A DNA stretch of 64,000 bases from NCBI GenBank assembly GCA_002413865.1, contig DHXX01000012.1, positions 20,241 to 84,240 on the forward strand, given 5' to 3'. Positions 18,992 to 60,790 of the stretch are shown here, in pieces. Source of the DNA: Candidatus Saccharibacteria bacterium UBA5145. Its GTDB lineage: Bacteria > Patescibacteriota > Saccharimonadia > Saccharimonadales > UBA4665. Under the pieces are notes generated by a model, which was given only the letters and a program-made list of their open reading frames with translations, did no database searches and was not told where the DNA came from. Each line of letters opens with the position of its first letter. Position 1 is the first letter of the stretch. Made by a program: the position numbers and the translations under genes.

Positions 18992-19130
18992 GTCATCCTA
19001 GGGCCTTTTTGTCATCCTGAGCCATAGGCGAAGGATCTGAGTCCTCATAGCGCAGATCCTTCACTCCGTTCAGGATGACGGAATACTTTGTCATCCCAAA
19101 CTTGATTTGGGATCCAATAGATAAGGATTC
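18992..19130. repeat. mosaic cluster of GTCATCC-tagged repeats
   Basis: A lone gtcatcc tag (18992), a complete type III palindrome at 19011-19079, the linker ggaatacttt, then the 5' half of a type I element (gtcatcccaaacttgatttgggatccaat) from 19090. Confidence 0.85.
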
Positions 19131-22580: not shown

Positions 22581-22718
22581 ATGCCTAAAAGAACATTCCA
22601 ACCAAAGAAACGTAGTCGCTCCCGTGAGCACGGCTTTATGAAGCGCATGGCCACCAAAGCCGGTAAGCTCGTTTTGAACCGCCGCCGCAACAAGGGCCGC
22701 GCCCGTTTAACTCATTAG
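22581..22718 (+). CDS. rpmH: 50S ribosomal protein L34
   Basis: Hand translation gives [45 protein letters not shown] (45 aa). It is too short for the ORF track, and its position upstream of rnpA is canonical. Confidence 0.95.
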
Positions 22719-22723
22719 TAAAA

Positions 22724-22802
22724 AGTTATAAAGTTCATAAAGTTGAAAGTTAGCTCGGACTGCAGCCAACTTTTAACTTTATACTTTATGAACTTTATAA
22801 CT
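22724..22802. repeat. family IV long palindrome between rpmH and rnpA
   Basis: agttataaagttcataaagttgaaagtt ...loop... aacttttaactttatactttatgaactttataact: ~28-nt arms in inverted orientation. Confidence 0.85.
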
Positions 22803-22813
22803 CCCGTAGGGAA

Positions 22814-23176
22814 GTGATGATTACAAGGTCGCACCGCTTTCATGGAAACAACAGCCTGCGGGCTGTCTATCGTCGTGCCCAAACACAGCGTGGGACGCTC
22901 GTCAGCCTCAAAACAGTCGCCAATAAGCGCCCCGGAGGCTACCGCGCCGCCGTGGTCGTCAGCCGCAAAGTCAGCAAGTCGGCCGTCGTGCGCAACCGGA
23001 TCCGCCGCCGGATTTACGAAATTATTCGCTCGCACGCAGCTCAGCTCAGCGCCAGTGACCTCGTCCTAACGGTGTTTGGCGAAGAACTAGCGACGCTGCC
23101 CCACGCCCAACTGGAAGCCACCATCATCGACCTCCTAACCAAAGCCGGCGTCCTCAACTCTACCAGAAAGTTATAA
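22814..23176 (+). CDS. rnpA: ribonuclease P protein component
   Basis: Basic protein containing VVVSRKVSKSAVVRNRIRRRIYEIIR (the RNR motif), downstream of rpmH. The start is GTG 22814 or ATG 22817. Confidence 0.85.
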   Translation: MMITRSHRFHGNNSLRAVYRRAQTQRGTLVSLKTVANKRPGGYRAAVVVSRKVSKSAVVRNRIRRRIYEIIRSHAAQLSASDLVLTVFGEELATLPHAQLEATIIDLLTKAGVLNSTRKL

Positions 23177-23195
23177 AGTTCATAAAGTTGAAAGT
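23169..23195 (+). repeat. family IV half-repeat overlapping the rnpA stop codon
   Basis: agttataaagttcataaagttgaaagt is identical to the left arm at 22724-22750. The rnpA TAA (23174-23176) lies inside it. Confidence 0.85.
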
Positions 23196-23238
23196 CAGCT
23201 CGGGCCGCTCAGCCGCCCAGGCCCGCCACCACAACACC

Positions 23239-23314
23239 GTCATTCTGAGCGATAGCGAAGAATCTGAGCTAAGGGTTCTTCGGGGTGAGATCCTTCGCCT
23301 GCGCTCAGGATGAC
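23239..23314. repeat. type III GTCATTC...GGATGAC palindromic element (76 bp)
   Basis: gtcattctgagcgatagcgaagaatctgagc ... gagatccttcgcctgcgctcaggatgac. Paralogs at 19011-19079, 25771-25845, 54300-54372, 58235-58308, 60179-60253 and 60614-60687. Confidence 0.9.
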
Positions 23315-24400: not shown

Positions 24401-24867
24401 ACCCATCAATCGACGAAGCTACCCAGTTCTCTAAGAAGTTTCTAGAAGATTTGTTGACTTTCTTTGGCCTCAACACCGAAGTCGAAGCGACCGCCGACGG
24501 CGAAGTCATCCAGTTGAACGTCCCCAGCACCAGCCTGAACGGTTTTTTGATCGGCCAGCGCGGCGACAACATGCGCGCCTTGCAGTACCTGACCAGCACG
24601 GCCCTCAAAAACAATGATTTTGAACACGCTCGGGTCAACGTCGACGTCGCCGAGTATAAAAAGCAACGCGCCGACCGCCTGCGCGAAAAGGCCGTCGACT
24701 GGGTCAAGCAGGTCCAGACTAGCGGCGAACCGATGGCCCTCCAGCCGATGAACGCCGCCGACCGCCGCGTCATCCACCAGTTGGCCGTCGAGTACGACTT
24801 GGCCAGCGAGTCGGCCGGCGATGGCCGCGACCGTCACATCGTCCTCAAGCCCTCCAGCAGTGAATAG
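24397..24867 (+). CDS. jag: Jag/KhpB-type RNA-binding protein (KH plus R3H domains)
   Basis: 4-nt overlap with yidC. GFLIGQRGDNMRALQYL (KH-like) and C-terminal R3H motif NAADRRVIHQLAVEYDLASESAGDGRDRHIVL. Confidence 0.85.
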   Translation: MNPSIDEATQFSKKFLEDLLTFFGLNTEVEATADGEVIQLNVPSTSLNGFLIGQRGDNMRALQYLTSTALKNNDFEHARVNVDVAEYKKQRADRLREKAVDWVKQVQTSGEPMALQPMNAADRRVIHQLAVEYDLASESAGDGRDRHIVLKPSSSE

Positions 24868-24940
24868 TAATCAGTAATTAGGAAGTAGGGGAGCTACCGT
24901 AGCTCAATCTATTTCCTATTTCCTAATTACTATTTACTAC
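24866..24940. repeat. family V purine-rich inverted repeat (AGGAAATAGG type), terminator-like
   Basis: agtaatcagtaattaggaagtagg ... ctatttcctatttcctaattactatttactac, directly after the jag stop. Relatives lie at 20663-20704, 20868-20900, 58172-58218 and 62731-62798. Confidence 0.7.
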
Positions 24941-25751: not shown

Positions 25752-25905
25752 GTCATCCTGAACGCCCTTTGTCATCCTGAACGGAGTGAAGGATCTGAGC
25801 CCAACCAAATCAATGCTCAGATGCTTCGCTGATGCTCAGCATGACAAGCTAAAAGATGCTTCGCTGATGCTCAGCATGACGGGGTTCGCTGACGCTTAGC
25901 AGGAT
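25752..25905. repeat. mosaic cluster of GTCATCC-tagged repeats with extra half-units
   Basis: A lone tag at 25752, a type III element at 25771-25845 whose right arm is the variant gctcagatgcttcgctgatgctcagcatgac, then a second copy of that arm (about 25853-25880) and a degenerate third. Confidence 0.8.
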
Positions 25906-27868: not shown

Positions 27869-27900
27869 GTCATCCCAGCGCAGGCTGGGACCCAGTCAAT
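27869..27900 (+). repeat. single GTCATCC hairpin unit overlapping the GIY-YIG stop codon
   Basis: gtgtcatcccagcgcaggctgggacccagtcaat. The TGA of the minus-strand gene (27896-27898) lies inside the unit. Confidence 0.8.
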
Positions 27901-28186
27901 CAAGTAATCCGCTAGAAAGATCTTTCCAGCCCGGATTATTTTCTTCTATCAATTGTAGCTTCCAAATTCGCCTCCAAGCCTTGATATTCTTCTCTCGTCT
28001 AATCGCTTCGTCGACAAGTTCATAAGTTTCGTAGTGCACTAACTCGGTAACATTGTACTTTGTGGTGAAACTGGAATATGATTTTGAACGATGTTCGTCG
28101 ACGCGACGCGCCAAATTATTGGTAATCCTAGTATAAAGCGTTCCGTTGCGCTGGCTAGCTAGGACGTAGACGAAATACTGTTTCAT
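27896..28186 (-). CDS. GIY-YIG nuclease family protein (stand-alone, UPF0213-like)
   Basis: YFVYVLASQRNGTLYTRITNNLARRVDEHR...EAIRREKNIKAWRR matches the GIY-YIG core (Y-V-Y...G-T-L-Y...R...E...N). 96 aa. Confidence 0.8.
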   Translation of the reverse strand: MKQYFVYVLASQRNGTLYTRITNNLARRVDEHRSKSYSSFTTKYNVTELVHYETYELVDEAIRREKNIKAWRRIWKLQLIEENNPGWKDLSSGLLD

Positions 28187-28246
28187 GACAACATAATAGC
28201 GAACGCCAATTAACTAATTATTAAATGGTGTGCTTCCGCACGAATA

Positions 28247-28409
28247 TTGACTGGGTCCCAGCTGGAGCCTGTGCTGAACTTGTTTCAGTGCTGGGATGAC
28301 ACCGTACTTTGTCATCCCAAACTTGATTGGGGATCCAGTCAGTATAAGGATTCTATTTTGACTGGGTCCCAGCGTTCGCTGGGATGACAAGAGGTAGTAC
28401 TGGGATGAC
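28247..28409. repeat. mosaic cluster of GTCATCC-tagged repeats
   Basis: A variant inverted unit (ttgactgggtcccagctggagc...ctgggatgac), the linker accgtacttt, a full type I element at 28311-28388, then an extra tgggatgac tag. Confidence 0.85.
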
Positions 28410-51724: not shown

Positions 51725-51753
51725 CCTTGCTTAGAGTCAGTTCACTCGCCGCC

Positions 51754-51916
51754 GTCATCCCAAATCACTAACGCTGTCATTCCAAACTCTCAACCCCGTC
51801 ATCCCAAACTCTCAACCCCGTCATCCCAAACTTGATTTGGGATCCAATCGATATAGAACTCATTATTGACTGGGTCCCAGCTTTCGCTGGGATGACAACG
51901 AGGGTGCTGGGATGAC
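51754..51916. repeat. mosaic cluster: three 22-nt half-units, a full type I element, then an extra tag
   Basis: gtcatYccaaa... units start at 51754, 51776 and 51798 (22-nt period). The full 77-bp element is at 51820-51896, followed by gctgggatgac ending at 51916. Confidence 0.9.
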
Positions 51917-54231: not shown

Positions 54232-54299
54232 TAGTACGATTGTACCATTTACTGACGGCTACCCGGTGTCAATTATCGTCAGGGCAACCCCCTGTAGTT

Positions 54300-54435
54300 G
54301 TCATTCTGAGCAAAGCGAAGAATCTGAGCTGTTGTTGGTAGCGCAGATCCTTCGCCTGCGGCTCAGGATGACGGAGGTGGCGGCTCAGGATGACGGCGTA
54401 CTTTGTCGTCCCAAACTTGGTTTGGGTCCAATCGA
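54300..54435. repeat. mosaic cluster of GTCATCC-tagged repeats
   Basis: A type III element at 54300-54372, an extra ggctcaggatgac, the linker ggcgtacttt, then a degenerate 5' half of type I (gtcgtcccaaacttggtttgggtccaatcgataagg). Confidence 0.85.
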
Positions 54436-54463
54436 TAAGGTCTCTATTTGTAGTTCAGCCAGC

Positions 54464-54979
54464 TTAGCTCGGGAACAAACGCTGCAATGCTTGGATGCCG
54501 AGCTGGATATCTTGGTCGTGTAGTAGTGATAGGTCGAGCCCGCACAGCGGTAATGACTGGATGCCGGCGACGTCGTCGCGAGGGGTGAGTGCCGCAGTGG
54601 TGGTCAGCCGGGTCCAAAAGAAGACGGTGATGACGGGCAATACTTCGCCCTTGAACGGGTACTGGCCGGCGCCACTGGTTAAGTAGCGCAGAGGCTCATA
54701 ATCGGCTGGGGTGAGCGCTAATTCTTCGGTTAGTTCGCGGCTGGCGGCGGCCTCGAAGGTCTCATCACCGTCCAGGAATCCGCCAAACGAATCGAGCATG
54801 CCCTTATGCGGCTCGATGCCGCGGACGGCCAGCAGGACGCGGTTATCGGCGGTTACAAAGAAGACACCGACCGTCGGCGTGGCATTGGCATAAATCGGGT
54901 GTTGATTGGCGCACTGGAAGGCGTGCGGCCCGGTCGGCGTGAGGGGTGTGCCGCAGCGGCGGCAAGCGGTCATCTCCAT
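54464..54979 (-). CDS. NUDIX hydrolase with N-terminal zinc-ribbon
   Basis: CRRCG...FQCANQH, then the NUDIX box GGFLDGDETFEAAASRELTEELAL (G-x5-E-x7-REUxEE). Confidence 0.8.
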   Translation of the reverse strand: MEMTACRRCGTPLTPTGPHAFQCANQHPIYANATPTVGVFFVTADNRVLLAVRGIEPHKGMLDSFGGFLDGDETFEAAASRELTEELALTPADYEPLRYLTSGAGQYPFKGEVLPVITVFFWTRLTTTAALTPRDDVAGIQSLPLCGLDLSLLHDQDIQLGIQALQRLFPS

Positions 54980-58234: not shown

Positions 58235-58308
58235 GTCATCCTGAACGGAGTGAAGGATCTACCCTAGACAAGTCCAAGCTCAGATCCTTCGCTTACGCTC
58301 AGAATGAC
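58235..58308. repeat. type III palindromic element (74 bp)
   Basis: gtcatcctgaacggagtgaaggatct ... gctcagatccttcgcttacgctcagaatgac. Confidence 0.9.
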
Positions 58309-60136: not shown

Positions 60137-60341
60137 GTCATCCCAACGTTGTCAGCCCAAACCACCTTTCCCGTAATTGTCATTCTGAGCAAAGCGAAGA
60201 ATCTGAGCCGTGACTAGATGAGCTCAGATCCTTCGCCGTCGGCTCAGGATGACAGTGCACCTTGTCATCCCAAACTTGATTTGGGATCCAATCGATATAA
60301 AGATTCTTTATTGACTGGGTCCCAGCTTTCGCTGGGATGAC
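60137..60341. repeat. mosaic cluster: degenerate tags, type III, type I
   Basis: gtcatcccaacgttgtcagcccaaacc, then type III at 60179-60253, the linker agtgcacctt, then type I at 60264-60341. Confidence 0.9.
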
Positions 60342-60364
60342 GGGGAGGACAAAGGGGGCGGACG

Positions 60365-60613: not shown

Positions 60614-60790
60614 GTCATTCTGAGCGCGTGCGAAGAATCTGAGCCGTAGCTTTATGGGCTCAGATCCTTCACTCCGTTCAGGATGACAGGGGGGAGTGGG
60701 ATGACGACGGGGCGCTGGGATGACAATGCTGGGCGCTGGGATGACAATGCTGGGCGCTGGGATGACAATGCTGGGGGCTGGGAGGACTGG
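60614..60790. repeat. type III element followed by a 21-nt tandem array of half-units
   Basis: Type III at 60614-60687. Then gctgggatgacaatgctgggc repeats three times (60714-60776), with degenerate units on both sides. Confidence 0.9.

Follow-up and report, generated by a model that had tools for sequence, protein, structure and literature searches.

Seven elements of about 75 bp, each made of two inverted arms, recur within the 64-kb stretch of DNA analysed here (hereafter the window), which raises the question of what kind of repeat they represent and how they came to multiply in a genome of ~1.1 Mb (98% complete; relatives up to phylum level have genomes of 0.4-2.1 Mb). An earlier note on this DNA, made from the letters alone, had described them as long palindromes of a family that it supposed to be widespread and unexplained. 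We found all seven copies that it had claimed, each with a left arm on the plus strand and a complementary right arm on the minus strand, and all of them intergenic, lying between long open reading frames. The head motif of the arms, GTCATYCTGARC, occurs 19 times in the window with at most one mismatch, against 0.59 occurrences expected from shuffled sequence, and this number was reached in none of 100 shuffles. As the window carries dnaA, rpmH, rnpA and yidC, the copy at 23239 could be placed in the rnpA-yidC spacer. The members of this family, which we call A, and the pieces next to them are the following.

19011-19079: A-family doublet; left arm 19011-19036 (+), GTCATCCTGAGCCATAGGCGAAGGAT; right arm 19056-19079 (-), GTCATCCTGAACGGAGTGAAGGAT; then a C-family hairpin
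23239-23314: A-family doublet in the rnpA-yidC spacer; arms 23239-23263 (+, ATTCT type) and 23290-23314 (-, ATCCT type)
25752-25763: partial head copy beside the 25771-25845 doublet, absent from the earlier note
25771-25845: A-family doublet; arms 25771-25794 (+) and 25821-25845 (-, ATGCT/AGCAT variant)
25856-25880 (-): extra solo A arm, the eighth and unpaired, GTCATGCTGAGCATCAGCGAAGCAT, duplicating the right arm
54300-54372: A-family doublet; arms 54300-54323 (+) and 54347-54372 (-)
54383-54394: repeated partial head after the 54300-54372 doublet, then a C-family hairpin; absent from the earlier note
58235-58308: A-family doublet; arms 58235-58258 (+) and 58284-58308 (-)
60179-60253: A-family doublet; arms 60179-60202 (+) and 60228-60253 (-)
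60614-60687: A-family doublet; arms 60614-60638 (+) and 60664-60687 (-); directly followed by a 21-nt-period array of GCTGGGATGAC heads

Translated, GTCATTCTGAGCGAAGCGAAGAATCTG gives VILSEAKNL, the spurious peptide that the earlier note names for such strings, and the A repeats account for a common source of spurious ORFs of this type in annotations. A public 85-aa gene call that crosses the 54300 doublet (L233 1657-1914, window ~54270-54520) is an example of these 'VILSEAKNL/FAQDD'-type ORFs.

Anatomy of the arm and of the doublet

The repeating unit is an oriented hairpin arm of 24-27 nt, and not the 75-bp palindrome. The arm follows the formula Y-GTC-AT-y-CT-GA-r-C-(loop)-G-y-GA-AG-r-AT-C, usually continued by a TGAGC tail, in which ATyCT pairs with AGrAT and rC with Gy, and an invariant tandem G·A/A·G (5'-GA/3'-AG) lies between the two stems. 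The segment described earlier as 'N6-9' is indeed present inside each arm, but it is really the inner 2-bp stem plus a loop of 3-5 nt, often GAA or GCA.

This structure is maintained by covariation within the arm. When 52 distinct 25-nt arms were placed on the structure ...(((((..((...))..)))))., 98.4% of the cells were paired, as compared with 23-50% when the structure was slid along the arms; both sides had changed in 38 cells, and the observed score was reached in none of 500 shuffles. In a pooled set of 274 arms, drawn from this genome and from the listed cross-phylum loci, the pair that position 6 forms is C-G in 155 arms, T-A in 97 and G-C in 11, with seven wobbles and four mismatches, and the pair at position 11 is G-C in 236 and A-T in 33. 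The same set has a C directly after the stem in 271 arms and a C or T before GTCAT in 264. Variable positions form Watson-Crick pairs within the arm in 40/44 and 43/44 cases, and G·T wobbles within arms are rare (~2% of cells). A lone A arm, folded as single-stranded DNA, is predicted at -1.9 kcal/mol, no better than shuffles, a value which has to be read in light of the folding model, since this credits neither sheared G·A pairs nor GNA loops.

Two such arms make up each ~75-bp element; their tails face each other and the GTCAT heads point outward. The genome contains 22 doublets together with solo or truncated arms, ~50 arms in all by looser patterns. The genes on either side of a doublet are mostly co-directional or convergent, and the doublet lies 15-250 nt past the end of an ORF. 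The spacer between the arms measures 19-27 nt, usually begins with CTGAGC and ends with G(C/T)(T/G)CAG. The two arms of a doublet are as a rule unlike: they share the base at position 6 in 3 of the 22 doublets (9.6 expected by chance), have equal length in five and are identical in one. Most doublets combine one ATTCT/GAGC arm (X, GTCATTCTGAGCGAAGCGAAGAATCTGAGC) with one ATCCT/GAAC arm (Y, GTCATCCTGAACGGAGTGAAGGATCTGAGC), and the spacers, once oriented from X to Y, have a common ...TGGAATTGATTG... core; their similarity of -0.98 compares with -2.05 (sd 0.15) in shuffles and was reached in none of 300. Homologous spacers between consistently different arm types indicate that the doublets were copied as whole units from a master doublet. 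Relative to transcription, Y comes first in eight doublets and X in two, which is not significant, and no target-site duplication was found at any of the 22 doublets of the genome.

For the whole doublet as single-stranded DNA, the prediction is a single long hairpin with imperfect pairing, at -14 to -23 kcal/mol (z -3 to -5.6), so that the fold put forward in the earlier note is thermodynamically possible according to the model. Covariation of the two arms to keep this pairing, the lack of which would by the note's own terms refute its reading, is absent across the 22 doublets. The conserved structure therefore sits within each arm, and the long hairpin, physically plausible as it may be, is not what evolution preserves.

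Small GIY-YIG genes and the hairpins around them

Five small GIY-YIG ORFs are present in the genome, and four of them lie between hairpins with the heads outward; those first needed here are listed together with the hairpins of the gene in the window.

C7:9067-9348 (contig C7, outside the window): A-type GIY-YIG gene, 94 aa, with A arms on both sides, heads outward
27896-28186 (-): B-type GIY-YIG (Ssn-like) gene, 96 aa, single-domain
27869-27893 (+) and 28364-28388 (-): B hairpins, TGTCATCCCAGCG(C/A)A(G/C)GCTGGGACCCAG, flanking the 27896-28186 gene

The gene on contig C7 has the layout GTCATCCTGAGCGAAGCGAAGGATCTGAGC...gene...GCGCAGATTCTTCGCTTTGCTCAGAATGAC, and its 94-aa product is a single-domain protein (Pfam PF01541, 52.2 bits, residues 2-76) with YVY and YVG motifs, Tyr17 and Glu64. 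The last two residues coincide with positions mutated in SsnA, a nuclease for which the mutants Y17A and E64A were described (PMC11893778). In length and in its single domain, the protein also agrees with the Ssn family (CDD cd10448), whose members are GIY-YIG proteins of ~90-150 aa. NCBIfam gave only a weak match of this protein to a group-I-intron endonuclease, and a PDB sequence search gave no match.

Three GIY-YIG paralogues, including that of the window, are flanked in the same heads-outward manner by hairpins of a second family, B (TGTCATCCCAGCGAAAGCTGGGACCCAG), instead of A arms. In the window, the cassette at 27869-28388 consists of a B hairpin (+), the 96-aa gene (-), a C hairpin and a B hairpin (-). 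The B family comprises three such cassettes and ~42 hairpins in the genome, mostly in heads-outward doublets. It has the GTCATCC head in common with A, as does a third family, C (TTTGTCATCCCAAACTTGATTTGGGATCCAAT), and hairpins of both families join A doublets into mosaics in the window, for instance at 60179-60342, where an A doublet is followed by a C hairpin and an inverted B hairpin.

The fifth small GIY-YIG gene (79 aa), which belongs to another subtype, closely follows a tRNA gene on another contig (C10:77.9-78.3 kb). Before it stand, in tandem, three copies of CCTACTTCGCTAAAGCTTCGTAGGATTGATAATCC, which is a hairpin without the GTCAT head. A separate palindromic repeat of ~85 nt, AAAGTTATAAAGTTCATAAAGTTGAAAGT...ACTTTCAACTTTAT, is found in the window at 22718-22805 and 23166-23196 and at ~30 sites of the genome, on both strands; it is missing at the rpmH-rnpA spacer of congeners.

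Distribution among relatives and across phyla

An association with a nuclease family, for which a check had been proposed, was found at three levels: at the locus on contig C7, in metagenome loci and in the genomes of the phylum. For the second level we took 80 metagenome loci encoding homologues 54-67% identical to the C7 protein. A strict A arm lies within 400 nt of the gene in 30 of these, and a perfect hairpin of the general tandem-GA pattern (GTCAT-xyz-GA-rs-loop-s'r'-GA-z'y'x'-AT) in 49, on both sides in 28. There are 115 matches to this pattern in 56.8 kb near the gene and four in 99.8 kb further off, a density ~50-fold higher near the gene, and the reversed-sequence control gave no matches in these loci. 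The flanking heads point mostly outward (upstream + 37, downstream - 41). The stem code xyz varies between loci (TCT, CCT, TCC, CCC, TTC), the two flanking arms agree in it at 17 of 22 loci, and the codes cluster on the protein tree, with 19 changes as compared with 26.2 in shuffles, none of 200 of which was as low. Genes found beside plain Watson-Crick hairpins fall, together with the B-type protein, into a clade of their own that has weak support.

Within the phylum, A arms are present in 81 of 401 genomes, and the reversed-pattern control gave none in any of them. The gene occurs in 44 of the 49 genomes with at least three arms (90%) as compared with 111 of the 352 others (32%; Fisher 3e-15, with shared ancestry ignored); the arm-poor genomes with a homologue probably have other hairpin types. 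The gene sits directly between a plus and a minus arm in three genomes (G190, G329, G396), and in a fourth (G318) it is 3 nt away from an arm.

The spread over many phyla, which the earlier note had suggested, was borne out when 185,579 species genomes were scanned for the exact pattern, which returned at least 112 loci. The named hosts among the matches listed span ~13 phyla, namely Bacteroidota, Acidobacteriota, Bacillota, Nitrospirota, Planctomycetota, Chloroflexota, Armatimonadota, Actinomycetota, Pseudomonadota, Desulfobacterota, a Victivallales lineage, Binatota and CPR. A GIY-YIG ORF is near the arm in 3 of the 112 cross-phylum loci among the matches listed, so most arm copies lie far from any GIY-YIG gene, and for this reason the association was tested from the gene side. 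The only gene that recurs between arms is the GIY-YIG gene. A contig of a Lachnospiraceae MAG (L051, positions 1-250) carries at least seven head-to-tail A arms with a 35-nt period, running off the contig end; no array of this kind was seen in the window's genome.

Among its relatives, the family is restricted to the species of the window. The search pattern, which 44 arms of this genome match, found no A arms in 40 relatives, eight of them of the same genus, and B arms were likewise found in none. One relative (G002) alone among the 40 has a close homologue of the GIY-YIG protein, and its rnpA-yidC spacer carries a different hairpin family, GTCATGCCGGGCTTGCCCCGGTATCCAG. The same spacer is without the A doublet in another genome of the genus (G003) and in a strain contig (L229); the exact boundary of the insertion at 23239 cannot be read in the latter because the remainder of the spacer differs as well. 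The 25771 doublet is fixed in all strains recovered, that at 58235 is identical in eight strain contigs and that at 54300 is unchanged in strain contigs. A look-up by exact protein gave no further match. No clean empty site was found among the same-genus genomes, whose spacers are too diverged, and the strain contigs, so that, with target duplications also missing, mobility is indirectly supported only. For a reduced genome of 1.1 Mb, the ~90 A and B hairpins, all acquired after it had parted from its congeners, represent a notable load of recently gained DNA. In addition, two strain contigs (L227 and L226) show a 116-bp length difference downstream of a jag/R3H-like gene (window ~24770-24920), unrelated to the A family.

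Relation to Ssn nucleases and to other repeat systems

The gene of SsnA, a GIY-YIG enzyme of 94 aa with a single domain, is flanked by the motif NTS, CGTCATTCCCGCGMAVGCGGGAATCYRG (Chenal et al., Nat Commun 2025, PMC11893778). Binding of SsnA to this oriented hairpin requires single-stranded DNA, and the cut falls a few nt upstream; the three nucleotides before the palindrome are important for cutting and the C after it is the most important base for binding, and the Neisseria enzyme does not touch RNA (PMC11893778). The A arm and NTS/SRM are alike in being oriented hairpins of ~25-30 nt with a (C/T)GTCAT head, a stem starting with AT and an invariant C after the stem, in lying between genes in tens to hundreds of copies with a patchy distribution across phyla, and in having a single-domain GIY-YIG gene of ~94 aa with the motif on both sides. 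Differences lie in the invariant tandem G·A/A·G, the 3-5-nt loop and the CTGAGC tail of the A arm, and in that the A copies are mostly gene-less doublets of unlike arms, in a host genome of ~1.1 Mb. As the arms adjoin a tiny GIY-YIG gene here and in many phyla, we assign the elements to this class of nuclease and hairpin repeat, and the family held to be unexplained thus fits the Ssn nuclease/Ssn-related-motif class published in 2025 (PMC11893778).

The A family is a tandem-G·A hairpin variant of the Ssn/SRM class, with the same system logic, that published definitions miss. The published SRM pattern, HGTCWYN(0-2)YYVSBRHN(0-5)WNVSBRGN(0-2)RNCYNB, is a search tool built from 29 genomes (PMC11893778) and does not define function. 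On the genome studied here it gave 40 matches, none of them A or C; these are almost all B hairpins, with three unrelated chance matches. At the 80 loci of the A-type clade, it finds a motif near four genes as compared with 49 for the tandem-GA pattern. Since it misses almost all tandem-GA loci, surveys that use it undercount the system. A literature search with the sequence strings returned unrelated primers only, and among the follow-up papers on Ssn we found none that covers the tandem-GA variant.

The CGTC-tagged REPs, which include dRS3 of Neisseria and RPE-4/-6 of Rickettsia (Di Nocera, De Gregorio & Rocco 2013, PMC3733652), also resemble the A arms, with a terminal CGTC/TGTC tag, an AT-first stem of 8-9 positions and a short tail. 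In both, inverted dimers of unlike arms are frequent, mosaic clusters occur and there is no association with a transposase; the loop of the CGTC-tagged REPs has 4-5 nt as compared with 3-5 nt in A arms. The tandem-GA type falls outside the four CGTC-REP families of that survey because more than one stem mismatch was discarded there (PMC3733652).

We consider it probable that the elements of the window are gene-less tail-to-tail doublets of an oriented hairpin repeat, the cognate motif of an Ssn-type single-domain GIY-YIG nuclease, and this reading has to be weighed against three others. The general build of the doublets, with two inverted palindromic units around a spacer, intergenic, in mosaic clusters and copied as units, is that of REP/REPIN elements mobilised by RAYT, a Y1 tyrosine transposase of the IS200/IS605 type, and both systems include a single-copy gene flanked by the repeat. 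In REPINs, however, this gene is the HuH Y1 transposase and the head is GTAG, whereas in the A system a GIY-YIG nuclease lies between the arms and the head is GTCAT. No match to Y1_Tnp (PF01797) was obtained in the 98%-complete genome by a search that was positive in six control genomes, and a REPIN/RAYT identity, which we rejected for this genome, is very improbable. We give equally little credit to an ordinary MITE, which would have the terminal inverted repeats of a DDE-type insertion sequence and be mobilised in trans by the transposase of that sequence. The inverted ends of ~25 bp, the size of ~75 bp, the many copies and their absence from relatives would suit such an element, but none of the 22 doublets has a target-site duplication, the GIY-YIG gene is the only one recurrent between arms, and the arms also occur singly and in head-to-tail arrays (L051) and fold on themselves with an internal covariation for which terminal inverted repeats have no need. 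Both readings thus fail for want of the enzyme and of the target duplication.

A role in RNA, by which transcribed doublet hairpins would terminate transcription or stabilise the upstream mRNA, as for classic REPs, agrees with the position of the doublets after ORF ends and with the predicted stability of the long hairpin, and many REPs have been argued to act as RNA (Di Nocera et al., PMC3733652). On the other side, the hairpins are not followed by a T-run and no doublet was called terminator-like as a unit, for which reasons an intrinsic terminator was rejected. In the entire window, Rfam models at their gathering thresholds matched two tRNAs only and none of the doublets. The rarity of G·T wobbles within arms and the lack of covariation maintaining the long hairpin also speak against RNA, and such a role would leave both the conserved unpaired head and tail and the link to the nuclease unexplained. 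We regard it as improbable, albeit less so than the two transposase readings.

If the elements are cognate motifs of an Ssn-type nuclease, the analogy with SsnA and NTS suggests how the system may work. The arm hairpin would form in single-stranded DNA, as arises in replication, DNA uptake or repair, where the 94-aa nuclease would bind the hairpin together with the head and tail of this one strand and would place a nick a few nucleotides to the 5' side of GTCAT. The gene sits between two arms with heads outward (arm-ssn-arm), and the 75-bp doublet repeats this layout in gene-less form. Since the two arms stand in inverted order, a doublet or cassette would offer one recognisable arm per strand, and the cuts would fall on opposite strands at its two outer flanks. 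It is as whole units that the gene-less doublets have multiplied in the lineage of the window. A bolder proposal, which we find possible and yet on balance doubtful, is that mixed-arm doublets are non-autonomous mobile elements spread in trans by an Ssn-type nuclease, the tandem-GA hairpins forming a separate specificity class. If true, this would amount to bacterial mobile DNA without transposase or target duplication in more than ten phyla.

To our knowledge, no site-specific nucleases other than the Ssn enzymes are confined to single-stranded DNA, and the range of Ssn specificities is wanted for ssDNA tools. The GTCAT head with its tandem-G·A hairpin is a new, well-defined and very widespread candidate site, paired with putative cognate 94-aa enzymes in dozens of loci.

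Finally, arrays with a period of 21-22 nt that repeat only the 12-nt head and ~10 variable nucleotides lie directly outside full arms at 51752-51832, 60681-60787 and on contig C7 at ~8.8-9.1 kb, with heads GTCATCCCAAACT, GCTGGGATGAC and GCTCAGAATGAC. Such head-only arrays, located where an Ssn-type nuclease would be expected to cut, may, as a speculation, be scars of repair.
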